From positions 1 through 15,928 of IMG/VR virus record IMGVR_UViG_3300045988_076720: a stretch of 15,928 bases of DNA; one strand, given 5' to 3'. Both the position numbers and the translations under genes were made by a program. The stretch comes from a virus. Its lineage: Duplodnaviria; Heunggongvirae; Uroviricota; Caudoviricetes. Shown one piece after another: positions 1 through 15,928 of the stretch (the stretch's first letter is position 1; each line of letters starts with the position of its first letter). The notes under the pieces were generated by a model that searched no databases, was not told where the DNA came from, and saw only the letters and a list, made by a program, of their open reading frames with translations.

Positions 1-12
1 TCAGAGGTAGTC

Positions 13-522
13 ATGATGACGCTGATTATTCCGCGAAAGGAGGCTCCCGTGTCCGGTGAGGGTACGGTGGTCATCCCGCAACCGGCAGGCGACGAGCCGG
101 TGATTAAAAACACGTTCTTTTTTCCAGATATCGACCCGAAGCGCGTCCGGGAACGTATGCGCCTTGAGCAGACCGTCGCCCCCGCCCGTCTGCGTGAGGC
201 CATCAAGTCAGGCATGGCGGAAACAAATGCGGAGCTGTACGAGTACCGCGAACAGAAAATTGCTGCCGGTTTTACGCGTCTGGCGGACGTCCCGGCGGAC
301 GACATCGACGGTGAAAGCATCAAAGTTTTTTACTACGAGCGCGCCGTGTGTGCGATGGCGACCGCATCGCTTTATGAGCGTTATCGCGGCGTGGATGCCA
401 GTGCGAAAGGCGACAAGAAGGCCGACAGCATTGACAGCACCATTGATGAGCTGTGGCGGGATATGCGCTGGGCGGTGGCGCGCATCCAGGACAAGCCGCG
501 CTGCATCGTGAGTCAAATCTGA
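13..522 (+). CDS. L: capsid (head) completion protein
   Basis: 169-aa ORF (MMTLIIPRKEAPVSGEG...) recognised as P2 gpL; first gene of the block; stop overlaps the start of X (TGATG). Confidence 0.88.
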   Translation: MMTLIIPRKEAPVSGEGTVVIPQPAGDEPVIKNTFFFPDIDPKRVRERMRLEQTVAPARLREAIKSGMAETNAELYEYREQKIAAGFTRLADVPADDIDGESIKVFYYERAVCAMATASLYERYRGVDASAKGDKKADSIDSTIDELWRDMRWAVARIQDKPRCIVSQI

Positions 523-725
523 TGAAGACCTTTGCGCTACAGGGCGACACGCTCGACGCCATCTGTGTCCGGTATTACGGGCGCACTGAGGGCGTGGTTG
601 AGACCGTGCTCGCCGCAAATCCGGGACTGGCTGAACTGGGTGCGGTGCTGCTGCATGGCACCGCCGTCGAACTGCCCGACGTTCAGACCGCGCCCGTGGC
701 TGAAACTGTCAATCTGTGGGAGTAA
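522..725 (+). CDS. X: tail protein X
   Basis: 67-aa ORF MKTFALQGDTLDAICVRYYGRTEGVVETVLAANPGL... matching P2 gpX; in-frame ATG at 522 overlapping the L stop; ORF track shows the same frame extending from 453. Confidence 0.85.
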   Translation: MKTFALQGDTLDAICVRYYGRTEGVVETVLAANPGLAELGAVLLHGTAVELPDVQTAPVAETVNLWE

Positions 726-728
726 CGC

Positions 729-1010
729 ATGACAGCAGAAGAAAAAAGCGTCCTGTCGCTTTTCATGATTGGGGTGCTGATTGTTGTCGGCAAGGTGCTT
801 GCCGGTGGTGAACCCATCACCCCGCGTCTGTTTATCGGGCGCATGTTGCTCGGTGGTTTTGTCTCGATGGTTGCCGGTGTTGTTCTGGTGCAGTTTCCTG
901 ACCTGTCACTGCCTGCGGTGTGCGGCATCGGCTCCATGCTGGGTATCGCCGGTTATCAGGTGATTGAGATTGCCATTCAGCGCCGCTTTAAGGGCAGGGG
1001 GAAACCGTAA
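729..1010 (+). CDS. Y: holin
   Basis: 93-aa ORF, strongly hydrophobic with charged C-terminus (RRFKGRGKP); position and size match P2 holin Y. Confidence 0.88.
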   Translation: MTAEEKSVLSLFMIGVLIVVGKVLAGGEPITPRLFIGRMLLGGFVSMVAGVVLVQFPDLSLPAVCGIGSMLGIAGYQVIEIAIQRRFKGRGKP

Positions 1011-1501
1011 TGCCGGTAATTAACACGCATCAGAATATCGCCGCCTTTCTCGACATGCTGGCCGTGTCCGAAGGGACGGCGAATCATCCGCTGACGAAAA
1101 ACCGTGGCTATGACGTGATAGTCACCGGACTGGACGGGAAGCCGGAAATTTTCACCGACTACAGTGACCACCCGTTCGCGCATGGCCGACCGGCGAAGGT
1201 GTTTAACCGTCGCGGTGAAAAATCCACGGCCTCCGGTCGCTATCAGCAGCTTTACCTGTTCTGGCCGCATTACCGCAAACAGCTTGCCCTGCCGGATTTC
1301 AGTCCGTTGTCACAGGACAGGCTCGCCATTCAGTTGATCCGCGAACGCGGTGCACTGGATGACATCCGGGCGGGACGCATTGAGCGCGCCATTTCACGCT
1401 GTCGCAATATCTGGGCGTCCCTGCCGGGTTACGGTCAGCGTGAGCATCCACTGGAAAAACTGGTCACCGTCTGGCGTACCGCCGGCGGCGTACCGGCTTA
1501 A
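1010..1501 (+). CDS. K: endolysin (phage lysozyme-type muramidase)
   Basis: 163-aa ORF MPVINTHQNIAAFLDMLAVSEGT... matching P2 gpK; start overlaps holin stop (TAATG). Confidence 0.9.
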   Translation: MPVINTHQNIAAFLDMLAVSEGTANHPLTKNRGYDVIVTGLDGKPEIFTDYSDHPFAHGRPAKVFNRRGEKSTASGRYQQLYLFWPHYRKQLALPDFSPLSQDRLAIQLIRERGALDDIRAGRIERAISRCRNIWASLPGYGQREHPLEKLVTVWRTAGGVPA

Positions 1502-1515
1502 ACGGAGTAAACACC

Positions 1516-1941
1516 ATGAAGAAATTATCCCTTTCACTGATGCTGAATGTGTCGCTGGCGCTGATGCTGGCACTGTCCATGATTTACCCGCAGAGCGTGG
1601 CCGTCAATTTTGTCGCCGCCTGGGCGATTCTGGCGACGGTTATCTGTGTGGTTGCCGGTGGTGTCGGCGTGTATGCCACTGAGTATGTGCTGGAACGCTA
1701 CGGGCGGGAGCTGTCGCCGGAATCGCTGGCCGTGAAGATTGTCACGTCGCTGTTTTTACAGCCGGTGCCGTGGCGCAGGCGGGCAGCGGCTCTGGTGGTG
1801 ATGGTGGCGACGTTTATCTCGCTGGTCGCTGCCGGGTGGATTTTTACCGCGCTGATTTATCTTGTGGCGTCGCTGTTTTTCCGGCTGATACGTAAAGCCT
1901 GTCGTCAGCGTCTTGAGGGGCGGGAACCATGTCAAAGCTGA
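1516..1941 (+). CDS. lysA: lysis timing/accessory membrane protein LysA
   Basis: 141-aa ORF with several hydrophobic segments, directly after the endolysin, as in P2 lysA. Confidence 0.85.
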   Translation: MKKLSLSLMLNVSLALMLALSMIYPQSVAVNFVAAWAILATVICVVAGGVGVYATEYVLERYGRELSPESLAVKIVTSLFLQPVPWRRRAAALVVMVATFISLVAAGWIFTALIYLVASLFFRLIRKACRQRLEGREPCQS

Positions 1942-2354
1942 TGATTGTGCTGGTCGTGTTGCTATCGCTGGCGGTGGCCGGTCTGTTTCTGGCGAAGCAT
2001 GAAAACGCCAGGCTGCGCGTCTCGCTGGACAGGGCGAACAATGTCGCCAGCGGGCAGCAGACAACCATCACCATGCTGAAAAATCAGCTTCATGTTGCCC
2101 TCACCAGGGCAGACAAAAACGAGCTGGCGCAGGTGGCACTGCGTCAGGAACTGGAGAACGCCGCGAAGCGTGAAGCACAGCGCGAGAAAACCATCACGAG
2201 GTTACTGAATGAAAACGAAGATTTTCGCCGCTGGTACGGCGCTGGCCTGCCTGATGCTGTGCGCCGGTTGCACCAGCGTCCGGCCTGCACCGACGCCAGT
2301 GATTGTCCCCAACGTCTGCCCGAAAGTGAGCCTTTGCCCGATGCCGGGCAGTGA
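1929..2354 (+). CDS. lysB: i-spanin (Rz-like) LysB
   Basis: 141-aa ORF with N-terminal transmembrane anchor (MSKLMIVLVVLLSLAVAGLFLA) and charged coiled-coil-like periplasmic part; overlaps the lysA 3' end. Confidence 0.88.
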   Translation: MSKLMIVLVVLLSLAVAGLFLAKHENARLRVSLDRANNVASGQQTTITMLKNQLHVALTRADKNELAQVALRQELENAAKREAQREKTITRLLNENEDFRRWYGAGLPDAVRRLHQRPACTDASDCPQRLPESEPLPDAGQ

Positions 2355-2499
2355 CCCGGAGACGAACGGCGATTTAAGTGCCGATATCCGGCAGCTTGAG
2401 AACGCGCTGGCACGCTGTGCCAGCCAGGTAAAAATGATTAAACACTGTCAGGACGAAAACGATGCTCAAACCCGACAGCCTGCGCAGGGCGCTGACTGA
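2209..2499 (+). CDS. lysC: o-spanin (Rz1-like outer-membrane lipoprotein) LysC
   Basis: 96-aa ORF in the +1 frame starting inside lysB and running past it into R; signal peptide with lipobox (LMLCAGC) and Pro-rich mature region. Confidence 0.85.
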   Translation: MKTKIFAAGTALACLMLCAGCTSVRPAPTPVIVPNVCPKVSLCPMPGSDPETNGDLSADIRQLENALARCASQVKMIKHCQDENDAQTRQPAQGAD

Positions 2500-2929
2500 T
2501 GCCGTCACGGTGCTGAAAACTAACCCCGATATGCTGCGGATATTCGTGGATAACGGGAGTATTGCCTCCACACTGGCGACGTCGCTGTCATTTGAAAAGC
2601 GTTACACGCTCAATGTCATTGTGACCGACTTTACCGGTGATTTTGACCTGCTCATCGTGCCGGTGCTGGCGTGGCTGCGGGAAAATCAGCCCGACATCAT
2701 GACCACCGACGAAGGCCAGAAAAAGGGCTTCACGTTTTATGCGGACATCAACAATGACAGCAGCTTTGATATCAGCATCAGCCTGATGCTGACCGAGCGC
2801 ACGCTGGTCAGTGAGGTGGACGGCGCACTGCATGTGAAGAATATCCCGGAACCTCCGCCGCCGGAGCCGGTCACCCGCCCGGTGGAGCTTTATATCAATG
2901 GCGAACTGGTGAGCAAGTGGGATGAATGA
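2462..2929 (+). CDS. R: tail completion protein R
   Basis: 155-aa ORF MLKPDSLRRALTDAVTVLKTNPDMLRIFVDNG... matching P2 gpR by sequence and position. Confidence 0.88.
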   Translation: MLKPDSLRRALTDAVTVLKTNPDMLRIFVDNGSIASTLATSLSFEKRYTLNVIVTDFTGDFDLLIVPVLAWLRENQPDIMTTDEGQKKGFTFYADINNDSSFDISISLMLTERTLVSEVDGALHVKNIPEPPPPEPVTRPVELYINGELVSKWDE

Positions 2930-3374
2930 GTTTAAGCGTTTTGAAGACCGGCTGACCGGACTTATTGAATCGCTGTCACCGTCAGGGCGTCGGCGACTGA
3001 GCGCCGAACTGGCGAAACGTCTGCGGCAGAGTCAGCAGCGCCGGGTGATGGCACAGAAAGCCCCGGACGGCACACCCTACGCACCACGCCAGCAGCAGAG
3101 CGCCAGAAAAAAGACCGGTCGCGTTAAGCGAAAAATGTTTGCGAAACTTATCACCAGTCGTTTTTTGCATATCCGCGCCAGCCCGGAACAGGCATCAATG
3201 GAGTTTTACGGCGGAAAGTCACCGAAAATTGCGAGCGTGCATCAGTTCGGTCTGTCGGAAGAAAACCGAAAAGACGGTAAGAAAATTGATTATCCGGCGC
3301 GTCCCCTGCTCGGCTTTACCGGTGAGGATGTGCAGATGATTGAAGAGATTATTCTGGCGCACCTCGACCGTTAG
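2922..3374 (+). CDS. S: tail completion / virion morphogenesis protein S
   Basis: 150-aa ORF MNEFKRFEDRLTGLIESLSPSGRRRLS... matching P2 gpS; overlaps the R stop by 8 nt. Confidence 0.88.
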   Translation: MNEFKRFEDRLTGLIESLSPSGRRRLSAELAKRLRQSQQRRVMAQKAPDGTPYAPRQQQSARKKTGRVKRKMFAKLITSRFLHIRASPEQASMEFYGGKSPKIASVHQFGLSEENRKDGKKIDYPARPLLGFTGEDVQMIEEIILAHLDR

Positions 3375-3440
3375 TTGTGCCATTCCCGACACCTCATCGT
3401 CACATTGCCGCCGGTATGACACGGCGGCATCCTTCCCGTT

Positions 3441-4076
3441 ATGAACACTCTCGCAAATATTCAGGAACTCGCGCGCGCACTGCGCAACATGATCCGCACC
3501 GGCATTATCGTCGAAACCGACCTTAACGCCGGTCGCTGCCGTGTGCAGACTGGCGGCATGTGCACCGACTGGCTTCAGTGGCTGACCCATCGTGCCGGGC
3601 GTTCGCGCACATGGTGGGCACCTTCCGTGGGGGAACAGGTGCTGATTCTGGCCGTGGGCGGTGAACTCGACACGGCGTTCGTTCTGCCGGGGATTTATTC
3701 CGGCGATAACCCTGCGCCGTCTGCGTCGGCGGATGCACTGCATATCCGTTTCCCTGACGGGGCGGTGATTGAGTATGAACCCGAAACCAGTGCGCTTACG
3801 GTAAGCGGAATTAAAACGGCCAGCGTGACGGCTTCTGATTCTGTTACCGCCACGGTGCCGGTGGTCATGGTGAAAGCATCAACCCGCATCACTCTGGACA
3901 CGCCGGAGGTGGTCTGCACAAACAAGCTGATCACCGGCACGCTGGAAGTGCAGAAGGGCGGGACGATGCGCGGCAACATTGAACACACCGGCGGTGAACT
4001 CTCATCAAACGGTAAGGTACTGCATACCCATAAACACCCCGGTGACAGTGGCGGCACAACAGGGGGACCTCTATGA
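3441..4076 (+). CDS. V: baseplate spike / assembly protein V
   Basis: 211-aa ORF MNTLANIQELARALRNMIRTGIIVETDLNAGRCRVQTGG... matching P2 gpV; follows a 66-bp intergenic gap (expected late promoter position). Confidence 0.9.
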   Translation: MNTLANIQELARALRNMIRTGIIVETDLNAGRCRVQTGGMCTDWLQWLTHRAGRSRTWWAPSVGEQVLILAVGGELDTAFVLPGIYSGDNPAPSASADALHIRFPDGAVIEYEPETSALTVSGIKTASVTASDSVTATVPVVMVKASTRITLDTPEVVCTNKLITGTLEVQKGGTMRGNIEHTGGELSSNGKVLHTHKHPGDSGGTTGGPL

Positions 4077-4420
4077 CTGCGCGTTATCTCGGAATGAATC
4101 GCAGTGATGGCCTGACTGTCACTGACCTTGAGCATATCAGCCAGAGTATCGGCGATATCCTGCGCACACCGGTCGGCTCACGGGTGATGCGTCGTGATTA
4201 CGGCTCGTTGCTGGCGTCAATGATTGACCAGCCGCAGACCCCGGCGCTTGAGTTGCAGATTAAGGTCGCCTGTTACATGTCCGTGCTGAAATGGGAACCC
4301 CGCGTCACCCTGTCATCCGTCACCACTGAGCGCAGTTTTGACGGGCGAATGACGGTCACGTTAACCGGTCAGCACAACGACACCGGCCAGCCACTTTCGT
4401 TAACCATCCCTGTGAGTTGA
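4073..4420 (+). CDS. W: baseplate wedge protein W
   Basis: 115-aa ORF matching P2 gpW; ATGA overlap with the V stop. Confidence 0.9.
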   Translation: MTARYLGMNRSDGLTVTDLEHISQSIGDILRTPVGSRVMRRDYGSLLASMIDQPQTPALELQIKVACYMSVLKWEPRVTLSSVTTERSFDGRMTVTLTGQHNDTGQPLSLTIPVS

Positions 4421-4424
4421 AACC

Positions 4425-5333
4425 ATGCCGATTATCGACCTGAACCAGCTACCTGCACCGGATGTGGTCGAGGAGCTGGACTTTGAAACCATTCTCGCTG
4501 AACGCAAGGCGACACTGATTTCCCTTTACCCGGAAGACCAGCAGGAGGCGGTTGCCCGTACCCTGACGCTGGAATCCGAGCCTCTCGTCAAACTGCTGGA
4601 GGAAAATGCTTATCGTGAGCTTATCTGGCGTCAGCGTGTGAATGAGGCCGCACGGGCGGTAATGCTGGCCTGTGCCGCCGGTAATGACCTTGATGTGATT
4701 GGTGCCAATTACAACACCACGCGCCTGACTATCACCCCGGCAGATGATTCGGCCATCCCGCCGACACCGGCAGTGATGGAATCTGATACTGATTATCGTC
4801 TGCGTATTCAGCAGGCGTTTGAAGGTTTAAGCGTTGCCGGGTCGGTGGGTGCTTATCAGTATCATGGTCGCAGTGCCGACGGGCGTGTCGCGGATATCTC
4901 TGTCACCAGTCCGTCTCCTGCCTGCGTCACCATCTCTGTGCTGTCCCGTGAAAATAACGGCGTCGCATCCGAAGACCTGCTGGCCGTGGTGCGTAACGCC
5001 CTTAATGGCGAGGACGTCAGGCCGGTGGCCGACCGCGTGACCGTGCAGTCTGCCGCCATCGTTGAATACCAGATAAACGCCACGCTTTACCTTTACCCTG
5101 GTCCCGAAAGCGAACCCATCCGCGCTGCTGCCGTGAAAAAACTGGAAGCGTACATCACGGCACAGCACCGGCTGGGGCGCGACATCCGTCTGTCTGCCAT
5201 TTATGCCGCTTTGCATGTGGAAGGCGTGCAGCGTGTCGAGCTGGCCGCACCACTGGCCGACATCGTGCTCAACAATACGCAGGCGTCTTTCTGTACTGAA
5301 TACAGCGTCGTGACGGGAGGCTCGGATGAGTGA
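4425..5333 (+). CDS. J: baseplate assembly protein J
   Basis: 302-aa ORF MPIIDLNQLPAPDVVEELDFETILAERKATLISLYPEDQQ... matching P2 gpJ. Confidence 0.9.
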   Translation: MPIIDLNQLPAPDVVEELDFETILAERKATLISLYPEDQQEAVARTLTLESEPLVKLLEENAYRELIWRQRVNEAARAVMLACAAGNDLDVIGANYNTTRLTITPADDSAIPPTPAVMESDTDYRLRIQQAFEGLSVAGSVGAYQYHGRSADGRVADISVTSPSPACVTISVLSRENNGVASEDLLAVVRNALNGEDVRPVADRVTVQSAAIVEYQINATLYLYPGPESEPIRAAAVKKLEAYITAQHRLGRDIRLSAIYAALHVEGVQRVELAAPLADIVLNNTQASFCTEYSVVTGGSDE

Positions 5334-5937
5334 TTCGCGACTGCTGCCAACCGGCTCATCACCGCTTGAAGTTGCCGCCGCAAAAGCCTGTGCGGAAATT
5401 GAAAAAACACCGGTCAGTATTCGTGAGCTGTGGAACCCGGACACCTGCCCGGCAAATCTGCTGCCGTGGCTGGCGTGGTCATTTTCGGTTGACCGCTGGG
5501 ATGATAAGTGGCCGGAAGCGACAAAACGCGCTGTTATCCGCGATGCGTATTTCATTCACTGCCATAAGGGCACTATAGGCGCAATCCGGCGTGTGGTGGA
5601 GCCGCTCGGCTATCTGATTGAGGTGAGGGAGTGGTGGCAACTCAACGAGGAGCCGGGGACGTTCCGCATCGTTGTTGGCGTGCTTGAGCAGGGTATTACC
5701 GAGGAAATGTATCAGGAGCTGGAGCGCCTCGTTGCTGATGCAAAACCGGCAAGCCGCCATCTGACGGGACTGGCTATCAGTTTAAGTACAACCGGCAACA
5801 TTTTTGCCGGTGCGGGATGCTATCACGGTGACGCCCTGACGGTTTATCCCTACACCCCGGAGGCCATTATTGTCGGAGGGGATTATTTCCCGGCCTCGGC
5901 CATTCATTTAATTGATAACCTGAGAGTAAACGCATGA
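5326..5937 (+). CDS. I: baseplate / tail protein I
   Basis: 203-aa ORF MSDSRLLPTGSSPLEVAAAKACAEIEK... matching P2 gpI; overlaps J and H ends. Confidence 0.88.
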   Translation: MSDSRLLPTGSSPLEVAAAKACAEIEKTPVSIRELWNPDTCPANLLPWLAWSFSVDRWDDKWPEATKRAVIRDAYFIHCHKGTIGAIRRVVEPLGYLIEVREWWQLNEEPGTFRIVVGVLEQGITEEMYQELERLVADAKPASRHLTGLAISLSTTGNIFAGAGCYHGDALTVYPYTPEAIIVGGDYFPASAIHLIDNLRVNA

Positions 5938-7256
5938 CAGTGAAATACTACGCCATTCTGACTAATCAGGGCGCAGCACGGCTGGCTAACGCGACGATGC
6001 TCGGCAGTAAGCTGAATCTGACGCAAATGGCCGTTGGTGATGCGAATGGTGTCTTGCCGACACCAGACCCGGCACAGACAAAACTGATTAACCAGAAACG
6101 CATCGCGCCGCTGAATCTTCTGAGTGTTGACCCGAACAACCAGAGCCAGATTATTGCGGAGCAAATCATCCCTGAGAACGAGGGCGGATTCTGGATCCGT
6201 GAGATTGGGCTTTATGATGATGAAGGCGTACTCATTGCGGTGGCGAACTGCCCGGAAACGTACAAACCGCAGTTGCAGGAAGGCAGTGGTCGTACCCAGA
6301 CTATCCGCATGATTCTGGTTGTCACGAATACCGAAGCTATTACGCTGAAAATCGACCCGTCGGTGGTACTGGCGACCCGTAAATATGTGGATGATGAAGT
6401 CCTGGAATTAAGGCTGTATGTGGATGACCAGATGAGCAAACACATTGCAGCACAGGACCCTCATACCCAGTATGCACAGAAACATAATCCGACATTTACC
6501 GGAGAACCAAAAGCGCCGACGCCTGCCGCAGGAAATAACACCACGCGGATTGCGACCACTGCGTTTGTACAGGCCGCTATTACCGCTCTGATTAACGGTG
6601 CGCCTGACACGCTGGACACACTGAAAGAAATTGCCGCGGCCATTAACAATGACCCGAAATTCAGCACCACCATTAACAATGCGCTGGCAGGTAAACAACC
6701 GCTGGACAATACGCTGACTCATTTGAGTGGAAAGGATGTTGCCGGTCTTCTCGCATACCTTGGTTTGGGAGAAGGCTCAGCGTTACCCGTTGGTGTGCCT
6801 GTTCCGTGGCCTTCAGCCACACCACCAACAGGCTGGCTGAAATGCAACGGTGCACCTTTTTCTGCCGAAGAGTACCCCAAACTGGCAAAGGCTTACCCAA
6901 AGTTAAAATTACCGGATTTGCGCGGTGAGTTTATTCGCGGGTGGGATGATGGGCGAGGTGTTGATTCCGCGAGACTGCTACTTTCAAGTCAGGCGGCATC
7001 TATCCTTGAACATAACCATGAAATGCATGGATGGACAGGGAACCCACTCATGGCTAGAGATGTTTATTCATCCGGTTCATCCGTATTTGCGGTGCAGTTG
7101 AGCATTGGCGATGGCGGGTTATTGTATTCGTGGAAGGATGGGAGTGGAACAACAAATGACAGTAAACGAATGGATAGAACAAATCATGTCAGTTCCGGCG
7201 CCGGTGATGGTAGCCCGCGAAACATTGCATTTAACTACATTGTGAGGGCTGCATAA
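5934..7256 (+). CDS. H: tail fiber protein H: constant N-terminal ~276 codons (5934-6761) fused to the currently expressed variable receptor-binding cassette (6762-7256)
   Basis: 440-aa ORF after gpI; C-terminal part has a tail-collar-type motif (PVGVPVPWPS...GWLKCNGA...LPDLRGEFIRGWDDGRGVD); constant/variable junction ...LLAYLGLGE lies on the 26-bp crossover site at 6748-6773. Confidence 0.88.
   Translation: MTVKYYAILTNQGAARLANATMLGSKLNLTQMAVGDANGVLPTPDPAQTKLINQKRIAPLNLLSVDPNNQSQIIAEQIIPENEGGFWIREIGLYDDEGVLIAVANCPETYKPQLQEGSGRTQTIRMILVVTNTEAITLKIDPSVVLATRKYVDDEVLELRLYVDDQMSKHIAAQDPHTQYAQKHNPTFTGEPKAPTPAAGNNTTRIATTAFVQAAITALINGAPDTLDTLKEIAAAINNDPKFSTTINNALAGKQPLDNTLTHLSGKDVAGLLAYLGLGEGSALPVGVPVPWPSATPPTGWLKCNGAPFSAEEYPKLAKAYPKLKLPDLRGEFIRGWDDGRGVDSARLLLSSQAASILEHNHEMHGWTGNPLMARDVYSSGSSVFAVQLSIGDGGLLYSWKDGSGTTNDSKRMDRTNHVSSGAGDGSPRNIAFNYIVRAA
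6748..6773. repeat. hix/gix-like 26-bp inversion crossover site, left (inside H coding sequence)
   Basis: TTCTCGCATACC-TT-GGTTTGGGAGAA: two imperfect 12-bp half-sites around a 2-bp core, resembling Hin/Gin sites as I recall them; 15 bp (TTGGTTTGGGAGAAG) are identical in inverted orientation to 8592-8606. Confidence 0.7.
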
Positions 7257-7859
7257 ATGGAACAGGCTATTTTGGGAAAAGACGGTTACGCTTTAAATGA
7301 TGGGGAAATCATCGTACATAACTATGATGGCGAAACGCGGGAATATATTTCTACATCAACTGAATATCTTGCGGTTGGCGTCGGTATCCCGGCATGTTCC
7401 TGTCTGGATGCACCAGGTACACATAAAGCTGGTTATGCAATCTGTCGCTCTGTAGATTTAAATTCATGGGAATATGTGCCAGACCATCGCGGTGAAGTTG
7501 TCTATAGTACCGAAACGGGAGATACCAAAGAAATCACAGTTCCGGGTGATTACCCTGAAAATACAACCACTATCGCCCCATTAACGCCATACGATGAATG
7601 GGATGGTGAGAAATGGGTGACGGATACCGAGGCACAGCATAGCGCCGCAGTAGGCGCGGCAGAAGCACAGCGTCAGTCACTGATTGATACTGCAATGGCT
7701 TCCATTAGTCTGATTCAACTGAAATTACAGGCCGGGCGGAAGCTGATGCAGACAGAAAACACCCGACTTAACGCTGTGCTGAATTACATTGACGCGGTGA
7801 CGGCAACAGATACCAGCACCGCGCCGGATGTCATCTGGCCTGAACTGCCGGAGGAGTAG
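7257..7859 (+). CDS. G: tail fiber assembly protein (chaperone), paired with the currently expressed fiber C-terminus
   Basis: 200-aa ORF immediately after the H stop (TAAATG); C-terminal motif ...DTSTAPDVIWPELPEE shared with the convergent alternative assembly gene. Confidence 0.85.
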   Translation: MEQAILGKDGYALNDGEIIVHNYDGETREYISTSTEYLAVGVGIPACSCLDAPGTHKAGYAICRSVDLNSWEYVPDHRGEVVYSTETGDTKEITVPGDYPENTTTIAPLTPYDEWDGEKWVTDTEAQHSAAVGAAEAQRQSLIDTAMASISLIQLKLQAGRKLMQTENTRLNAVLNYIDAVTATDTSTAPDVIWPELPEE

Positions 7860-8274
7860 GCCATTCAATATCTGGCGCACTGGAAGTATCGACCAGCTCC
7901 AGTGCGTCCAGATAATCCAGCCACAAATTATATTGCGCCAGTTCCTCACCTTTCAGACGACCAATAGCCGCTTTACCAACCCATTGTCTACTGTTCATAT
8001 AATCGTTGGCCTGATTAATCAATTGCTGCTTTTTAGTTTCGGCTGATGCAATTTGTTCTTCACGTGTTGGTGGAGGAATATCTGCCCATGCAGGCAGTCC
8101 ATCTTCTCCAACACATCTGTATTTTCCTTCTGGTGGTGTGTCATAGAAATATTCCCTGAAAATTACTTCGTCTATATCAACACCTTTTTCTTCAGGCCAT
8201 TCACCTTTTTCAACATAAAGAGACTGAAGTTCGTAAGGATATGCCAGGTTGTTTACGTACAGATATTTCATCAT
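7831..8274 (-). CDS. alternative tail fiber assembly protein (G'/U'-like), silent partner inside the invertible segment
   Basis: 147-aa - strand [32 protein letters not shown]... with C-terminus ...LVDTSSAPDIEWPTPPAVQAR homologous to the gpG C-terminus; start overlaps the stop of the upstream - strand fiber cassette (TAATG); 3' end overlaps G convergently by 29 bp. Confidence 0.82.
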   Translation of the reverse strand: MMKYLYVNNLAYPYELQSLYVEKGEWPEEKGVDIDEVIFREYFYDTPPEGKYRCVGEDGLPAWADIPPPTREEQIASAETKKQQLINQANDYMNSRQWVGKAAIGRLKGEELAQYNLWLDYLDALELVDTSSAPDIEWPTPPAVQAR

Positions 8275-8648
8275 TACCAGCCCTTAGCGAAAAACGCACC
8301 ACCTTCAAGACCATAATTGCAGTGAGCTATGAAGCCGGTAGTGCTCCAGTTGGTCGCCCCCCACATATTCCCGCCCCCGAAACCACCATCGCACACAATT
8401 ACAATGCCCGGTGTCTGTGTAAATGGAATCGGGAATGAAACATTGGCGGATACAGGCCCGTGTTCACCAGGAAAACTAATTCGTCCCCACTGTTCAATTG
8501 AACCATCTGGCATTTTTCGCCAGCCTGAACCTGATGCATATGATGACATATCAGGTATCTGATTTTCCCCTGTTCCCACATTCCGTTTTGCCGCTTCTCC
8601 CAAACCAACGTTTATGAAAATGCAGAGATAACGGGCAACTGGCATCAT
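8274..8648 (-). CDS. alternative tail-fiber C-terminal cassette (Hv'/Sv'-like); functional part is 8274-8606, expressed only as an H fusion after inversion
   Basis: - strand ORF whose segment after the crossover ([35 protein letters not shown]...) is Gly-rich fiber-tip-like; it contains the same GLGE codons (ggt ttg gga gaa) as H at the crossover, in frame. The ATG at 8648 lies outside the segment and is probably not a real start. Confidence 0.7.
8595..8620. repeat. hix/gix-like 26-bp inversion crossover site, right (inverted relative to 6748-6773)
   Basis: TTCTCCCAAACC-AA-CGTTTATGAAAA; its reverse complement shares the 15-bp block TTGGTTTGGGAGAAG with the H site; lies ~55 bp upstream of the invertase start. 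Confidence 0.7.
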
Positions 8649-8675
8649 CTCCGGTTTTTATTCAGGGGGATGCTC

Positions 8676-9269
8676 ATGCTTATTGGCTATGTACGCGTGT
8701 CAACAAATGACCAGAACACGGAATTGCAGCGTAATGCGCTGGAGTGTGCAGGATGTGAGCTGATTTTTGAGGATAAAATCAGCGGCACGAAGTCTGACCG
8801 ACCGGGACTGAAAAAACTGCTCAGAACATTATCAGCAGGTGACACTCTGGTAGTCTGGAAGCTGGACAGGCTGGGGCGTAGTATGCGGCATCTGGTCATT
8901 CTGGTTGAGGAACTGCGCGAACGCGGCGTTAATTTTCGCAGCCTGACAGATGCTATTGATACCAGCACGCCGATGGGGCGTTTTTTCTTTCATGTGATGG
9001 GTGCCCTGGCTGAAATGGAACGAGAACTCATTGTCGAGCGGACACGCGCCGGACTGGAAGCGGCCAGAGCTAAAGGTCGTATTGGTGGCAGACGTCCGAA
9101 GCTCACCGCGAGTGAGTGGGAACAGGCAGGACGGTTGCTGGCTGCGGGTGAATCACGTCAACGCGTGGCGCTGATTTTTGATATTGGCCTGTCCACGCTC
9201 TATAAAAAATTCCCCTCATCAGCGACAAAGAATAAATTGTGTCATCCCTTAGCCAACCGGGACAAATAG
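8676..9269 (+). CDS. serine DNA invertase (Gin/Hin/Cin/Pin family site-specific recombinase)
   Basis: N-terminus MLIGYVRVSTNDQNTELQRNAL... with catalytic-Ser motif, VVWKLDRLGRS, GRFFFHVMGALAEMERELIVERT and a C-terminal HTH (GRIGGRRPKLT...LSTLYKK) are hallmark invertase sequences. ORF track starts at 8670 (MLMLIGY...); the ATG at 8676 has better spacing from the GGGGG Shine-Dalgarno-like run. Confidence 0.93.
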   Translation: MLIGYVRVSTNDQNTELQRNALECAGCELIFEDKISGTKSDRPGLKKLLRTLSAGDTLVVWKLDRLGRSMRHLVILVEELRERGVNFRSLTDAIDTSTPMGRFFFHVMGALAEMERELIVERTRAGLEAARAKGRIGGRRPKLTASEWEQAGRLLAAGESRQRVALIFDIGLSTLYKKFPSSATKNKLCHPLANRDK

Positions 9270-9328
9270 CCTGACATCTCCGGCACAACTGAAAATATCA
9301 CTCACCCATTAACCACGGAGTTAAACGG

Positions 9329-10519
9329 ATGAGTGACTATCATCACGGCGTGCAGGTGCTGGAGATTAACGACGGCACCCGCGTCATTTCCACCGTATCC
9401 ACTGCCATTGTCGGCATGGTCTGCACGGCCAGCGATGCGGATGCGGAAACCTTCCCCCTCAATAAACCGGTGCTGATTACCAATGTGCAGAGCGCAATTG
9501 CAAAGGCCGGTAAAAAAGGCACGCTGGCGGCATCGTTGCAGGCTATCGCTGACCAGTCAAAACCGGTCACCGTTGTTGTGCGTGTGGAAGACGGCACCGG
9601 CGACGACGAGGAAACGAAACTTGCGCAGACCGTTTCCAATATCATCGGCACCACCGACGAAAACGGTCAGTACACCGGACTGAAAGCCCTGCTGGCGGCA
9701 GAGTCGGTAACCGGTGTTAAACCGCGTATTCTCGGTGTGCCGGGACTGGACACCAAAGAGGTGGCTGTTGCACTGGCATCCGTCTGTCAGAAGCTGCGCG
9801 CTTTCGGGTATATCAGCGCATGGGGCTGTAAAACCATTTCCGAGGTGAAAGCCTACCGCCAGAATTTCAGCCAGCGTGAGCTTATGGTCATCTGGCCGGA
9901 TTTCCTCGCATGGGATACGGTCGCCAGTACCACCGCCACCGCGTATGCCTCCGCCCGTGCGCTGGGTCTGCGCGCTAAAATCGACCAGGAGCAGGGCTGG
10001 CATAAAACGCTGTCCAACGTCGGGGTGAACGGTGTTACCGGCATCAGCGCGTCCGTATTCTGGGATTTGCAGGAGTCCGGCACCGATGCTGACCTGCTTA
10101 ACGAGTCAGGCGTCACAACGCTGATTCGCCGTGACGGTTTCCGCTTCTGGGGTAACCGTACCTGCTCTGATGACCCGCTGTTCCTCTTTGAAAACTACAC
10201 CCGCACCGCGCAGGTGCTGGCCGACACGATGGCTGAGGCGCACATGTGGGCGGTGGACAAGCCCATCACCGCAACGCTGATTCGCGACATCGTTGACGGC
10301 ATCAATGCCAAATTCCGTGAGTTGAAAACAAACGGCTATATCGTGGATGCGACCTGCTGGTTCAGCGAAGAATCCAACGATGCGGAAACCCTCAAGGCCG
10401 GAAAACTGTATATCGACTACGACTATACACCGGTACCTCCTCTTGAAAACCTGACCCTGCGCCAGCGTATTACCGATAAATACCTGGCAAATCTGGTCAC
10501 CTCGGTTAACAGCAATTAA
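9329..10519 (+). CDS. FI: contractile tail sheath protein
   Basis: 396-aa ORF MSDYHHGVQVLEINDGTRVISTVSTAIVGMV... matching P2 FI in sequence and length. Confidence 0.92.
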   Translation: MSDYHHGVQVLEINDGTRVISTVSTAIVGMVCTASDADAETFPLNKPVLITNVQSAIAKAGKKGTLAASLQAIADQSKPVTVVVRVEDGTGDDEETKLAQTVSNIIGTTDENGQYTGLKALLAAESVTGVKPRILGVPGLDTKEVAVALASVCQKLRAFGYISAWGCKTISEVKAYRQNFSQRELMVIWPDFLAWDTVASTTATAYASARALGLRAKIDQEQGWHKTLSNVGVNGVTGISASVFWDLQESGTDADLLNESGVTTLIRRDGFRFWGNRTCSDDPLFLFENYTRTAQVLADTMAEAHMWAVDKPITATLIRDIVDGINAKFRELKTNGYIVDATCWFSEESNDAETLKAGKLYIDYDYTPVPPLENLTLRQRITDKYLANLVTSVNSN

Positions 10520-10531
10520 GGAGCCTGACCG

Positions 10532-11047
10532 ATGGCAATGCCGCGCAAACTCAAGTTAATGAACGTCTTTCTGAACGGCTACAGCTATCAGGGCGTCGCG
10601 AAGTCCGTCACGCTACCAAAACTGACCCGTAAGCTCGAAAACTATCGCGGTGCGGGGATGAACGGCAGCGCACCGGTAGACCTCGGCCTTGATGACGATG
10701 CGCTGTCAATGGAGTGGTCGCTCGGTGGCTTCCCGGATTCGGTTATCTGGGAGCTTTACGCCGCAACCGGTGTGGATGCCGTACCGATTCGTTTTGCAGG
10801 TTCTTACCAGCGCGACGATACCGGCGAAACGGTGGCCGTCGAGGTGGTCATGCGTGGACGTCAGAAAGAAATCGACACCGGCGAGGGCAAACAGGGAGAA
10901 GACACCGAGTCGAAAATCTCCGTGGTCTGCACCTATTTCCGGCTGACGATGGACGGTAAGGAGCTGGTCGAAATCGACATCAACATGATTGAGAAGGTGA
11001 ACGGCGTCGACCGGCTGGAGCAACACCGCCGCAATATCGGCCTGTGA
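10532..11047 (+). CDS. FII: tail tube protein
   Basis: 171-aa ORF MAMPRKLKLMNVFLNGYSYQGVAKSVTLPKL... matching P2 FII; GGAG RBS upstream. Confidence 0.92.
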   Translation: MAMPRKLKLMNVFLNGYSYQGVAKSVTLPKLTRKLENYRGAGMNGSAPVDLGLDDDALSMEWSLGGFPDSVIWELYAATGVDAVPIRFAGSYQRDDTGETVAVEVVMRGRQKEIDTGEGKQGEDTESKISVVCTYFRLTMDGKELVEIDINMIEKVNGVDRLEQHRRNIGL

Positions 11048-11054
11048 TTTTCAT

Positions 11055-11075
11055 CCGGTCAGCCTGGCTGACCGG
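11055..11075 (+). other. perfect palindrome / predicted RNA hairpin in the FII-E intergenic region
   Basis: CCGGTCAGC-CTG-GCTGACCGG: 9-bp perfect stem with 3-nt loop, seen directly in sequence; followed by TTAACCCC, so no U-tract. Confidence 0.5.
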
Positions 11076-11103
11076 TTAACCCCGATTCAGAAGTGAGAAA
11101 ACC

Positions 11104-11379
11104 ATGAACAAAGAAAACGTCATTACCCTGGACAATCCGGTCAAACGTGGTGAGCAGGTTATCGAACAGGTCACGCTGATGAAACCCAATGCCGGGACGC
11201 TGCGCGGTGTCAGTCTGGCTGCGGTCGCAAACTCCGAAGTCGATGCACTGATTAAAGTGCTGCCGCGCATGACGGCACCGATGCTGACCGAGCAGGAGGT
11301 CGCCGCGCTGGAACTGCCTGACCTTGTGGCGCTGGCCGGTAAGGTGGTCGGTTTTTTGTCGCCGAACTCGGTGCAGTGA
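11104..11379 (+). CDS. E: tail assembly chaperone E
   Basis: 91-aa ORF MNKENVITLDNPVKRGEQVIEQVTLMKPNAG... matching P2 gpE; slippery heptamer near its 3' end. Confidence 0.9.
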   Translation: MNKENVITLDNPVKRGEQVIEQVTLMKPNAGTLRGVSLAAVANSEVDALIKVLPRMTAPMLTEQEVAALELPDLVALAGKVVGFLSPNSVQ

Positions 11380-11531
11380 CGTTTCCGAAAAATCTGTCGG
11401 TCGATGACCTGATGGCGGATGTGGCAGTGATATTTCACTGGCCGCCATCAGAACTGTATCCCATGAGCCTGACCGAACTCATCACATGGCGCGAAAAGGC
11501 GCTCCGGCGAAGCGGAAACACGAATGAGTAA
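11104..11531 (+). CDS. E+E': tail assembly chaperone E+E' produced by programmed -1 ribosomal frameshift at 11352-11358
   Basis: Slippery heptamer T-TTT-TTG in the E frame; the -1 frame is open from 11358 to TAA at 11529-11531 (checked codon by codon), giving 85 + 57 = 142 aa; overlaps the T start, as in P2. Confidence 0.8.
11352..11358 (+). other. -1 programmed frameshift slippery site (TTTTTTG)
   Basis: X-XXY-YYZ heptamer in the zero frame of E (codons TTT TTG at 11353-11358). Confidence 0.8.
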
Positions 11532-12252
11532 CAATGTAAAATTACAGGTATTGCTCAGGGCTGTTGACCAGGCATCCCGTCCGTTTAAATCCATCCGCAC
11601 AGCGAGCAAATCGCTGTCGGGGGATATCCGGGAAACACAAAAATCACTGCGCGAGCTGAACGGTCAGGCATCCCGTATTGAGGGATTTCGCAAGACCAGT
11701 GCACAGCTCGCCGTGACTGGTCATGCACTTGAAAAGGCACGGCAGGAGGCCGAAGCCCTTGCCACACAGTTTAAAAACACCGAACGTCCGACCCGTGCTC
11801 AGGCGAAAGTGCTGGAATCCGCAAAGCGTGCGGCGGAGGACTTACAGGCGAAATATAACCGCCTGACGGATTCCGTTAAACGCCAGCAGCGGGAACTGGC
11901 CGCTGTGGGAATTAATACCCGCAATCTTGCACATGATGAGCAGGGACTGAAAAACCGTATCAGTGAAACCACTGCACAGCTTAACCGTCAGCGTGACGCG
12001 CTGGCGCGTGTCAGTGCGCAACAGGCAAAACTTAACGCAGTAAAACAGCGTTATCAGGCAGGCAAGGAACTGGCCGGAAATATGGCCTCAGTGGGCGCTG
12101 CCGGTGTGGGGATTGCGGCGGCGGGAACGATGGCCGGAGTTAAGTTGCTGATGCCCGGTTATGAGTTTGCGCAGAAAAACTCAGAATTGCAGGCTGTGCT
12201 CGGAGTGGCAAAAGACTCCGCCGAAATGACCGCACTACGCAAACAGGCGTGA
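11524..12252 (+). CDS. T: tail tape measure protein T, N-terminal portion ending at an in-frame TGA
   Basis: 242-aa ORF MSNNVKLQVLLRAVDQASRPFKSIRTAS..., coiled-coil-like and Ala/Gln/Arg-rich; same frame as the 12370-13971 ORF. Confidence 0.85.
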   Translation: MSNNVKLQVLLRAVDQASRPFKSIRTASKSLSGDIRETQKSLRELNGQASRIEGFRKTSAQLAVTGHALEKARQEAEALATQFKNTERPTRAQAKVLESAKRAAEDLQAKYNRLTDSVKRQQRELAAVGINTRNLAHDEQGLKNRISETTAQLNRQRDALARVSAQQAKLNAVKQRYQAGKELAGNMASVGAAGVGIAAAGTMAGVKLLMPGYEFAQKNSELQAVLGVAKDSAEMTALRKQA

Positions 12253-12369
12253 CAGCTCGGGGCCAATACCGCCGCTTCGGCGGATGATGCGGCCGGTGCA
12301 CAGATAATCATCGCGAAAGCGGGTGGGGATGTTGATGCCATTCAGGCGGCAACGCCGGTCACGCTGAAT

Positions 12370-13971
12370 ATGGCGCTGGCGAACCGCCGCACGATGGAAG
12401 AAAACGCCGCCCTGCTGATGGGGATGAAATCCGCCTTTCAGCTTTCAAACGATAAGGTCGCTCATATCGGGGATGTTCTCTCCATGACGATGAACAAAAC
12501 CGCCGCCGATTTTGACGGCATGAGCGATGCCTTGACCTATGCCGCACCTGTGGCAAAAAATGCCGGTGTCAGCATTGAAGAAACCGCCGCAATGGTCGGG
12601 GCGCTGCATGATGCAAAAATCACAGGCTCAATGGCGGGGACGGGAAGCCGTGCCGTGTTAAGCCGCCTGCAGGCACCGACGGGAAAAGCATGGGATGCAC
12701 TCAAAGAGCTTGGAGTGAAAACCTCAGACAGCAAGGGAAACACCCGGCCAATATTTACCATTCTGAAAGAAATGCAGGCCAGTTTTGAGAAAAACCGGCT
12801 CGGTACTGCCCAGCAGGCTGAATACATGAAAACCATTTTCGGGGAGGAGGCCAGCTCAGCCGCCGCTGTGCTGATGACTGCCGCCTCAACCGGAAAGCTG
12901 GACAAACTGACCGCTGCGTTTAAAGCCTCAGACGGGAAGACCGCAGAGCTGGTAAATATCATGCAGGACAACCTCGGTGGTGACTTTAAGGAGTTTCAGT
13001 CCGCTTATGAGGCGGTGGGGACTGACCTGTTTGACCAGCAGGAAGGCGCACTGCGTAATCTCACGCAGACGGCCACAAAGTATGTGTTAAAACTCGACGG
13101 CTGGATCCAGAAAAACAAATCACTGGCGTCAACCATCGGCATCATTGTCGGTGGTGCACTGGCACTGACTGGTGTCATCGGTGCCATTGGCCTCGTAGCC
13201 TGGCCGGTTATCACCGGCATTAATGCCATCATCGCGGCAGCAGGCGCAATGGGTGCAATCTTCACGACGGTTGGCAGTGCTGTTATAACCGCCATCGGGG
13301 CGATTAGCTGGCCGGTTGTGGCCGTGGTGGCCGCCATTGTCGCCGGGGCGTTGCTTATCCGTAAATACTGGGAGCCTGTCAGCGCATTCTTTGGCGGTGT
13401 GGTGGAAGGGCTGAAAGCGGCATTTGCGCCGGTGGGGGAACTGTTCACGCCACTTAAACCGGTGTTTGACTGGCTGGGTGAAAAGTTACAGGCCGCGTGG
13501 CAGTGGTTTAAAAACCTGATTGCCCCGGTCAAAGCCACCCAGGACACCCTGAACCGTTGCCGTGACACGGGGGTCATGTTCGGGCAGGCACTGGCTGACG
13601 CGCTGATGCTGCCGCTTAATGCGTTCAACAAACTGCGCAGTGGTATTGACTGGGTACTGGAAAAACTCGGTGTTATCAACAAAGAGTCAGACACACTTGA
13701 CCAGACCGCCGCAAGGACTCATGCCGCCACGTATGGCACCGGTGGTTATATTCCGGCGACCAGCTCTTATGCAGGCTATCAGGCTTATCAGCCGGTTACG
13801 GCACCGGCTGGCCGCTCTTATGTGGACCAGAGTAAAAACGAATATCACATCAGTCTGACGGGCGGTACTGCGCCGGGGACTCAGCTCGACCGCCAGTTAC
13901 AGGATGCGCTCGAAAAATACGAGCGGGATAAACGTGCGCGCGCCCGTGCCAGCATGATGCATGACGGTTAA
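12370..13971 (+). CDS. T: tail tape measure protein T, C-terminal portion (first ATG after the internal stop; frame is open from 12253)
   Basis: 533-aa ORF with Gly/Ala-rich hydrophobic repeats (IGIIVGGALALTGVIGAIGLVAWPVITGINAIIAAAGAMGAI...) typical of tape measure proteins; same frame as 11524-12252. Confidence 0.85.
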   Translation: MALANRRTMEENAALLMGMKSAFQLSNDKVAHIGDVLSMTMNKTAADFDGMSDALTYAAPVAKNAGVSIEETAAMVGALHDAKITGSMAGTGSRAVLSRLQAPTGKAWDALKELGVKTSDSKGNTRPIFTILKEMQASFEKNRLGTAQQAEYMKTIFGEEASSAAAVLMTAASTGKLDKLTAAFKASDGKTAELVNIMQDNLGGDFKEFQSAYEAVGTDLFDQQEGALRNLTQTATKYVLKLDGWIQKNKSLASTIGIIVGGALALTGVIGAIGLVAWPVITGINAIIAAAGAMGAIFTTVGSAVITAIGAISWPVVAVVAAIVAGALLIRKYWEPVSAFFGGVVEGLKAAFAPVGELFTPLKPVFDWLGEKLQAAWQWFKNLIAPVKATQDTLNRCRDTGVMFGQALADALMLPLNAFNKLRSGIDWVLEKLGVINKESDTLDQTAARTHAATYGTGGYIPATSSYAGYQAYQPVTAPAGRSYVDQSKNEYHISLTGGTAPGTQLDRQLQDALEKYERDKRARARASMMHDG

Positions 13972-13985
13972 GGAGGTGACGAAAA

Positions 13986-14465
13986 ATGATGCTCGCGTTA
14001 GGTATGTTTGTTTTTATGCGCCAGACGCTGCCACACCAGACCATGCAGCGCGAATCAGATTATCGCTGGCCGTCAAATTCCCGTATCGGTAAACGGGATG
14101 CCTTTCAGTTTCTCGGTGTGGGTGAGGAAAACATGACGCTTGCCGGTGTGCTTTATCCCGAACTGACCGGCGGAAAGCTGACGATGACCACGCTCAGGCT
14201 GATGGCAGAGGAAGGCCGGGCGTGGCCGTTGCTGGATGGCACCGGCATGATTTACGGCATGTATGTCATCAGCAGGGTGAGTGAAACAGGGAGTATTTTC
14301 TTTGCAGACGGCACACCCCGGAAAATTGATTTTACGCTGTCACTTACCCGCGTTGATGAATCACTGGCCGCGCTTTATGGCGATATCGGTAAACAGGCGG
14401 AATCGCTCATCGGTAAGGCGGGCAGTATGGCAACTAAATTCACGGGTATGACGGGGGCGGGATAA
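13986..14465 (+). CDS. U: tail protein U
   Basis: 159-aa ORF MMLALGMFVFMRQTLPHQTMQRESDYRWPSNS... matching P2 gpU; GGAGGTGA RBS upstream. Confidence 0.9.
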   Translation: MMLALGMFVFMRQTLPHQTMQRESDYRWPSNSRIGKRDAFQFLGVGEENMTLAGVLYPELTGGKLTMTTLRLMAEEGRAWPLLDGTGMIYGMYVISRVSETGSIFFADGTPRKIDFTLSLTRVDESLAALYGDIGKQAESLIGKAGSMATKFTGMTGAG

Positions 14466-15628
14466 TGCTGGATACGCTGACATTTGATGCAGGCAGTACG
14501 CTGACGCCGGATTACATGCTGATGCTCGACAGCAGGGATATTACCGGCAATATCAGCGACCGTCTGATGAGCATGACCCTGACGGATAACCGGGGCTTTG
14601 AGGCTGACCAGCTTGATATTGAACTGAACGATGCCGACGGGCAGGTCGGGCTGCCGGTTCGTGGCGCTGTCCTGACGGTGTATATCGGCTGGAAAGGTTT
14701 TGCCCTGGTATGCAAAGGGAAATTTACCGTTGATGAGGTTGAACACCGGGGCGCGCCGGATGTGGTCACCATCCGTGCCCGGAGTGCAGATTTTCGCGGG
14801 ACGCTCAATTCCCGCCGGGAAGGCTCATGGCATGACACCACGCTCGGTGCGATTGTTGAGGCGATAGCCTCCCGTAACAGGCTGGAAGCCAGTGTCGCTC
14901 CGTCACTGGCCGGAATTAAAATTCCGCACATCGACCAGTCGCAGGAGTCTGATGCGAAATTCCTGACCCGTCTTGCAGAACGCAACGGCGGTGAGGTCTC
15001 GGTAAAAATGGGAAAACTGTTGTTTCTCAAAGCGGGGCAGGGGGTGACGGCCAGCGGTAAAAAAATCCCGCAGGTCACCATAACCCGCAGCGACGGCGAC
15101 CGCCACCATTTTGCGATTGCTGACCGTGGAGCCTATACCGGCGTAACGGCAAAGTGGCTTCACACCAAAGACCCGAAGCCGCAAAAGCAGAAGGTAAAAC
15201 TGAAACGCAAAAAGAAAGAAAAACACCTGCGCGCACTGGAGCACCCCAAAGCGAAACCGGTCAGGCAGAAGAAAGCGCCAAAAGTACCGGAAGCGCGCGA
15301 AGGTGAATACATGGCCGGTGAGGCTGACAACGTTTTTGCCCTGACCACGGTATATGCCACGAAAGCGCAGGCCATGCGCGCCGCTCAGGCGAAGTGGGAT
15401 AAACTGCAACGGGGCGTAGCGGAGTTCTCCATCAGTCTGGCTACTGGTCGGGCAGATATTTACACGGAAACGCCGGTCAAAGTATCAGGCTTTAAGCGCG
15501 TCATAGACGAGCAGGACTGGACAATCACTAAGGTGACACATTTTCTGAATAATAGCGGCTTCACGACGTCCTTAGAGCTTGAGGTCAGGCTTTCTGATGT
15601 GGAGTACGAAACAGAAGATGATGAGTGA
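14465..15628 (+). CDS. D: tail protein D
   Basis: 387-aa ORF MLDTLTFDAGSTLTPDYMLMLDSRDITGNISDRLMSM... matching P2 gpD; start overlaps the U stop (TAATG). Confidence 0.9.
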   Translation: MLDTLTFDAGSTLTPDYMLMLDSRDITGNISDRLMSMTLTDNRGFEADQLDIELNDADGQVGLPVRGAVLTVYIGWKGFALVCKGKFTVDEVEHRGAPDVVTIRARSADFRGTLNSRREGSWHDTTLGAIVEAIASRNRLEASVAPSLAGIKIPHIDQSQESDAKFLTRLAERNGGEVSVKMGKLLFLKAGQGVTASGKKIPQVTITRSDGDRHHFAIADRGAYTGVTAKWLHTKDPKPQKQKVKLKRKKKEKHLRALEHPKAKPVRQKKAPKVPEAREGEYMAGEADNVFALTTVYATKAQAMRAAQAKWDKLQRGVAEFSISLATGRADIYTETPVKVSGFKRVIDEQDWTITKVTHFLNNSGFTTSLELEVRLSDVEYETEDDE

Positions 15629-15709
15629 TGTGTTTTATTTATCTGTTTGTTTTATAAGGATAAATTAACTAAAATGGCACCATCAACAAAACCGGAAGAG
15701 GTGCTCGCG

Positions 15710-15928
15710 ATGTTTCATTGTCCTTTATGCCAGCATGCCGCACATGCGCGTACAAGTCGCTATATCACTGACACGACAAAAGAGCGTTATCACCAGTGCC
15801 AGAACGTGAATTGCAGCGCCACGTTCATCACTTATGAGTCGGTACAGCGATACATCGTGAAGCCGGGAGAAGTCCACGCCGTAAGGCCGCACCCGTTGCC
15901 GTCAGGACAGCAAATTATGTGGATGTAA
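15710..15928 (+). CDS. ogr: late transcription activator Ogr (Cys4 zinc-finger)
   Basis: 72-aa product MFHCPLCQHAAHARTSRYITDTTKERYHQCQNVNCSATF... with C-x2-C...C-x4-C; matches P2 Ogr; GGAAGAGG RBS 9 nt upstream; stop at the window end. The ORF-track start at 15647 is an upstream in-frame ATG without RBS support. Confidence 0.9.
   Translation: MFHCPLCQHAAHARTSRYITDTTKERYHQCQNVNCSATFITYESVQRYIVKPGEVHAVRPHPLPSGQQIMWM

Follow-up and report, generated by a model that had tools for sequence, protein, structure and literature searches.

A premature opal codon in the tape measure gene T of a metagenome-assembled P2-like prophage

A tape measure gene that reads in one frame from end to end save for a single TGA may be a broken gene, a gene with a leaky stop codon, a pair of adjoining genes, or a product of faulty assembly. 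Which of these descriptions fits gene T in the stretch of viral DNA analysed here, a window of 15,928 nucleotides (positions 1 to 15,928 of IMG/VR record IMGVR_UViG_3300045988_076720), is the question that this locus raises. Our analysis points to a genuine, rare nonsense allele of T which probably makes the prophage tail-defective, and the most likely account is that one gene of the prophage was recently knocked out in the ordinary way, no new kind of decoding being involved.

The interrupted gene and the prophage around it

The window, assembled from a metagenome, covers the late region (lysis, baseplate and tail genes) of a P2-like prophage (Peduovirus) that is integrated in an E. coli chromosome. 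It is 100% identical to contig NODE_1585 of ENA assembly ERZ773226 (20,543 bp, stated coverage 3.02), on which the host genes fieF, pfkA, sbp, cdh and tpiA come after ogr; the window is therefore part of a prophage in an E. coli chromosome, and the flanking genes fix both the host as E. coli-like and the integration site as next to fieF-pfkA. The left end of the window, where gene L lies (13-522), is the end of the contig, and the head and early regions fall outside the sequence. The features that bear on gene T are as follows.

11524-13971, plus strand: gene T (tail length tape measure) of the P2-like prophage, 816 codons including the terminal stop, with one interruption at codon 243.
12250-12252, plus strand: premature opal codon TGA at codon 243, in place of Arg (CGC); the next base, 12253, is C.
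11524-12252, plus strand: truncated product, a 242-aa N-terminal coiled-coil-like gpT fragment with weak coiled-coil-type matches and a match to TIGR01760 positions 2-45.
12253-12369, plus strand: 39 sense codons of T, open and without an in-frame ATG, GTG or TTG, translated only if the TGA is read through.
12370-13971, plus strand: downstream ORF of 533 codons, the C-terminal two thirds of T, which gene finders call as a separate gene.

The first-pass annotation had described two T ORFs in the same frame, separated by 117 nt that are open in that frame and interrupted solely by the TGA at 12250-12252, and our single-frame translation of 11524-13971, with 816 codons and one internal stop at codon 243, confirms it. 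The local sequence reads ...AAA CAG GCG TGA CAG CTC GGG GCC..., and the C at 12253 that gives the UGA-C context is present as that annotation had it.

The identity of the gene is clear from its relatives. Aligned with gene T of P2 (2448 nt), window T is gap-free over its full length at 96.7% identity, and full-length 2448-nt matches occur in 92 phage records, such as P2 (96.7%), pro147 (97.8%) and vB_EcoM-720R8 (98.0%). Among 5,426 complete E. coli genomes 1,611 have a T match, the best at 98.6% identity, so that nucleotide identity to the T genes of P2 and E. coli prophages spans 96.7-98.6% with no indels. The P2 record describes the same 2448 nt as 'tail length tape measure protein; essential tail protein', with E and E+E' (carrying a -1 frameshift site) before T and U and D after it, and the order FI-FII-E-E'-T-U-D-ogr is the same in the window and in P2. 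The downstream piece scores far above the cut-offs of the tape measure models TIGR01760 (tape_meas_TP901; 319 bits, cut-off 28.8) and PF10145 (PhageMin_Tail; 148.7 bits, cut-off 33.2). Window T thus has the domains and the gene order of the P2 gpT type, and lacks the uninterrupted frame of about 815 codons. Because of the TGA at codon 243 we class it as a disrupted allele (pseudogene) of the P2 gpT-type tape measure family.

The stop lies inside the conserved domain. In intact P2 gpT, TIGR01760 covers residues 199-549 and PF10145 residues 239-440, and the stop falls on position 46 of 349 of the former and position 5 of 201 of the latter. The stretch 12253-13968 takes up both models directly after it, matching TIGR01760 at 47-348 and PF10145 at 6-201, while the 242-aa piece accounts for the positions of TIGR01760 that precede the stop.

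The rest of the late region is in good order. Compared gene by gene (tblastn) with the intact prophage of E. coli 2017.02.04CC, the other late genes, 25 of 25, all have their full length and contain no stop; they include L, X, Y, K, lysA, lysB, lysC, R, S, V, W, J, I, H and G, and also the invertase, FI, FII, E, E', U, D and ogr. The end of E' (11531) overlaps the start of T (11524), as in P2. In-frame indels leave K (lysozyme, 1010-1501) two codons and FII (tube, 10532-11047) one codon shorter than in the reference prophage. The surrounding features are these.

11104-11531, plus strand: tail chaperone genes E and E+E', intact, with E 98.9% and the E' part 100% identical to the proteins of the intact prophage.
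11352-11358, plus strand: -1 slippery heptamer TTTTTTG of E/E+E', intact.
6748-9269: invertible tail-fibre module, not in canonical P2, with imperfect inverted repeats at 6748-6774 (inside H) and 8594-8620.
7257-7859: G, within the invertible module.
7831-8274, minus strand: second tail-fibre assembly gene, in opposite orientation, within the invertible module.
8274-8648, minus strand: alternative C-terminal segment of H, within the invertible module.
8670-9269: Resolvase/HTH_7 serine recombinase, following the segment that the inverted repeats flank (G, the second assembly gene and the alternative H segment).
15647-15928 of the window and 14187-19020 of the source contig: ogr, the prophage end, and then the host genes fieF (cation efflux), pfkA, sbp, cdh and tpiA.

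The module at 6748-9269 looks like a host-range switch of the Gin/Cin/Pin type, and one inverted-repeat arm, TTCTCCCAAACCAACGTTT, resembles a crossover site of the gix/cix/pix kind.

Codon 243, the mutation cluster and the occurrence of the allele

What codon 243 should be is well defined by the relatives. Eleven close T alleles, those of P2, pro147, 720R8 and E. coli chromosomal copies, have CGC, as do two more diverged peduoviruses, while Erwinia phage EtG has CGT; the related DNA alleles, close or moderately related, thus carry CGC or CGT in 14 of 14 cases, and CGC is also named for the T genes of P24C9 and YpM_50. At the protein level all of the best 120 database matches (812-856 aa) have Arg in this column (120/120) and read ...LRKQARQLGDNT... 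around it, one of them with N in place of D. Even in an alignment that reaches phages of Vibrio, Pseudomonas, Staphylococcus and Bacillus (31-39% identity) Arg is found in eight of nine sequences, the ninth, phage P88, having Leu. The first-pass annotation had offered CGA or TGG as examples of the ancestral sense codon, in place of which the relatives have CGC (CGT in EtG), and a change from CGC to TGA therefore needs two substitutions. Its central proposal, that one opal codon interrupts an otherwise intact P2-like tape measure gene, is supported by the replacement of a conserved Arg within one domain and by the 25 other intact late genes.

The two substitutions do not stand alone. Compared with a panel of nine intact T alleles, against which private sites were defined, window T has 15 private substitutions, and four of them form a cluster.

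12250-12263, plus strand: four lineage-private substitutions within 14 bp, namely 12250 C>T, 12252 C>A, 12261 C/T>G and 12263 A>C.

The changes at 12250 and 12252 together give R243*, the third is synonymous at G246, and the fourth gives D247A. Since column 247 is variable and has Ala in several distant relatives, D247A by itself appears unremarkable. In a simulation, at least four of 15 private sites fell within 14 bp with P ~6e-4. The other 11 private changes are all synonymous (11/11), compared with only 24% of random point changes in gene T; on this ground purifying selection has evidently acted on gene T through almost the whole of its divergence. As these other private changes are all synonymous and the other late genes are intact, the inactivation of T looks recent.

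The cluster itself has the look of a single multi-nucleotide event of recent date. As a mutational pattern, four substitutions in 14 bp are odd, and the search for a donor was negative: among the T-gene places of complete E. coli genomes (1,254) the best candidate keeps all four mismatches in the surrounding 40 nt, none of these genomes having fewer than four there, and within the window the cluster has no second copy, no local direct or inverted repeat and no quasi-palindrome partner. The relaxed pattern CAGGCGNNNCAGCTCGGGGCCAA gave, among the matches listed, chance ones only, in unrelated GC-rich genomes and in metagenome and viral contigs, and yielded neither a donor nor an intermediate allele.

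Whether the allele is real depends on where else it is found. An exact look-up of the 242-aa product returned three contigs: the source, a contig of ERR589754 and a Logan contig of ERR862924. The second, a 4,639-bp contig from human gut (assembly ERZ914719), has the same TGA and the same four-base cluster; ERR589754 belongs to PRJEB6997, described in papers as a rheumatoid arthritis microbiome cohort. The third (ERR862924_586, 727-1453) was rejected as a carrier, in that the contig ends one base after codon 242 and this last base is C, which gives CGC; the allele is 97.9% identical to the window and is an ordinary one. The end of a contig can thus mimic a truncated protein in exact-sequence look-ups. 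The 533-aa product is on the same two contigs only, the database listing two contigs for each product. None of the 5,426 complete E. coli genomes has the TGA allele, and scans of species-representative genomes and JGI metagenomes for the exact TGA-containing sequence gave no match; a 31-mer across the cluster is GCAAACAGGCGTGACAGCTCGGGGCCAATAC.

These observations bear on the possibility of a sequencing or assembly artefact, in which the true codon is CGC and the TGA comes from low-quality or chimeric reads in a low-coverage metagenome. The coverage of the source contig is only about 3x (a k-mer value, stated as 3.02); the four clustered changes are private and absent from the 1,254 T-gene places; the allele is missing from the species-representative genomes and the JGI metagenomes; and the exact product is on just two database contigs, the apparent third carrier reading CGC. 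Moreover, one set of reads, or one person, may lie behind both carrier assemblies, in which case they could share a read-level error. However, the contigs come from different assemblers, to judge by their names (SPAdes-style NODE and MEGAHIT-style k127), and they have the identical cluster together with three other differences. Over 4,639 bp these are the only differences (12666, 13221 and 13254), all in T and downstream of the stop, all synonymous at third positions, and for at least one of them other E. coli alleles of T show standing variation. Because three sites differ, the two carrier contigs are not copies of one sequence; mixed strains or recombination may account for the differences, which do not have to imply selection. 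It also counts against an artefact that random errors in Illumina reads seldom produce four substitutions together that pass k-mer filtering, and the contig is not generally error-ridden, the 25 genes of the 15.9-kb window having no frameshifts or stops. We therefore regard an artefact as doubtful. The sequencing error that the first-pass annotation had listed as an alternative is weakened by the second assembly with the same allele, yet it keeps some ground from the coverage of about 3x and from carriers that are possibly of the same source. Most likely the allele is genuine; if real it is rare, at most two samples carrying it.

Readthrough, recoding and a possible gene boundary

If the allele is genuine, the stop could still be leaky: a near-cognate tRNA-Trp would read UGA-C and supply the few gpT molecules that each tail needs, leaving a prophage viable at reduced yield. 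The stop is indeed a UGA with C at +4, and UGAC was reportedly ranked the weakest stop signal in E. coli by Poole, Brown and Tate in 1995, a study that PMC9841425 cites. Few copies of gpT are needed per tail. The 573 codons downstream of the stop are fully open and their private changes are only synonymous, including, as a weak hint in favour of leakiness, those at the three sites that differ between the contigs, and the Leu of phage P88 in the Arg column suggests that a hydrophobic residue may be tolerated there. Because the +4 base affects termination and UGAC reportedly ranks as the weakest signal, some full-length gpT with Trp243 should, going by that ranking, be made.

Several observations nonetheless make functional readthrough unlikely. 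The TGA is not conserved, being present in at most two samples against Arg in every close relative examined, whereas conservation of the stop in related genomes is what programmed readthrough should display. A stimulatory RNA structure was not detected, the 67 nt from 12244 being no stabler than shuffled sequence (z = +0.42), and the sole stable element, a 6-bp hairpin at 12269-12283 that starts 17 nt after the stop, is also present in intact CGC alleles. Searches of 12150-12400 against Rfam families, bacterial SECIS included, gave no match at E <= 10, and no tRNA gene that could act as a suppressor was found on the window or the longer contig. The synonymous changes are equally explained by selection before a recent mutation or by recombination, and the truncated fragment, if made in excess, could tie up the E/E+E' chaperones. 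The work that documents an effect of the +4 base on termination efficiency in E. coli also bears on the host: the B-type RF2 of natural E. coli is the more active form, and in its presence a UGA readthrough product that had been visible in K-12 could no longer be seen (PMC5373646); this too speaks against a leaky stop. The low-level readthrough suggested by the first-pass annotation is left with its UGA-C context; nothing else was found in its support, and the stop is not conserved. The stronger form of the idea, in which UGA-C read as Trp suffices for an attenuated but viable prophage and the synonymous downstream differences reflect continuing purifying selection, seems less likely still. 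Only if readthrough were functionally sufficient would the locus stand as a natural, if modest, case of a leaky opal codon in the gene of a low-copy virion protein.

It is very improbable that the tape measure is naturally encoded by two genes, or that the UGA undergoes other programmed recoding, for instance as selenocysteine. Gene callers do annotate ORFs of 242 and 533 aa, but the homologues examined or listed are annotated as single tape measure genes (the one exception has an IS2 insertion), the best 120 proteins are all 812-856 aa long, the break splits one curated domain model, no in-frame start occurs in the 117 nt between the stop and 12370, no promoter- or terminator-like site was found in 12100-12500, no Shine-Dalgarno-like motif is apparent by eye before the ATG at 12370, and with regard to selenocysteine no SECIS match was obtained at E <= 10. 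In agreement with this, a 182-aa query across the junction gave one tblastn alignment, at least 80% covered, in 449 phage records, and the two separately conserved proteins which the first-pass annotation had said would overturn its reading are not seen, the homologues having no gene boundary at this point.

Consequences and comparison with known systems

A recent nonsense mutation in T, the reading that we prefer, would act as follows. The conserved Arg codon CGC would have become TGA as part of a small multi-nucleotide change, and translation would then mostly end at codon 243, giving a 242-aa N-terminal fragment. As encoded, this product ends after residue 242, so that it is without the hydrophobic segment, the C-terminal part and almost the whole conserved tape measure domain. 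A tape measure protein has to reach along the tube from baseplate to terminator, and classical genetics has established T as essential for P2 tail formation. Since T is annotated as essential in P2 and the tape measure must span the tube, the prophage is expected to be tail-defective; it would make no tails or very few, and would be defective for infectious particles. Both the phenotype, a tail-defective, cryptic prophage, and the timing of the event are what we infer from sequence comparison, and given the UGA-C context the knock-out may be leaky.

The inactivation of a prophage structural gene by a point lesion is a well-known kind of event and the finding is not novel in that respect. In practice, annotation should join the ORFs at 11524-12252 and 12370-13971 into one disrupted tape measure gene, and counts of inducible prophages in gut E. 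coli should treat this one as probably defective.

Three known systems help to place the allele. The coat/A1 gene of Q-beta is a case of programmed UGA readthrough in which the stop is conserved and both products are functional. Gene T resembles it in having an in-frame UGA within a longer open frame and in encoding a virion protein needed in few copies; unlike that of Q-beta, the stop in the window is private and rare as an allele and takes the place of a conserved Arg within a domain, and no role is known for the short product. The closest comparison is with P2 gpT (NP_046782.1) and its Peduovirus homologues in E. coli, Salmonella and Yersinia, which share length, gene position and domains with window T; with respect to P2 gpT the window has TGA instead of CGC (Arg) at codon 243 and Ala instead of Asp at codon 247. 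A parallel for the lesion is the prophage of E. coli strain 32-4 (NZ_CP048310.1), whose T is interrupted by IS2: there, too, a P2-like prophage that is otherwise complete has one lesion, in an essential tail gene. With one complete genome carrying IS2 in T, decay of T in such prophages is not unusual. In contrast to the IS2 insertion, however, the lesion in the window is a nonsense codon, which is potentially leaky and which can revert by two changes to CGC or by one change to CGA, TGG, TGC/TGT, GGA, AGA, TTA or TCA.
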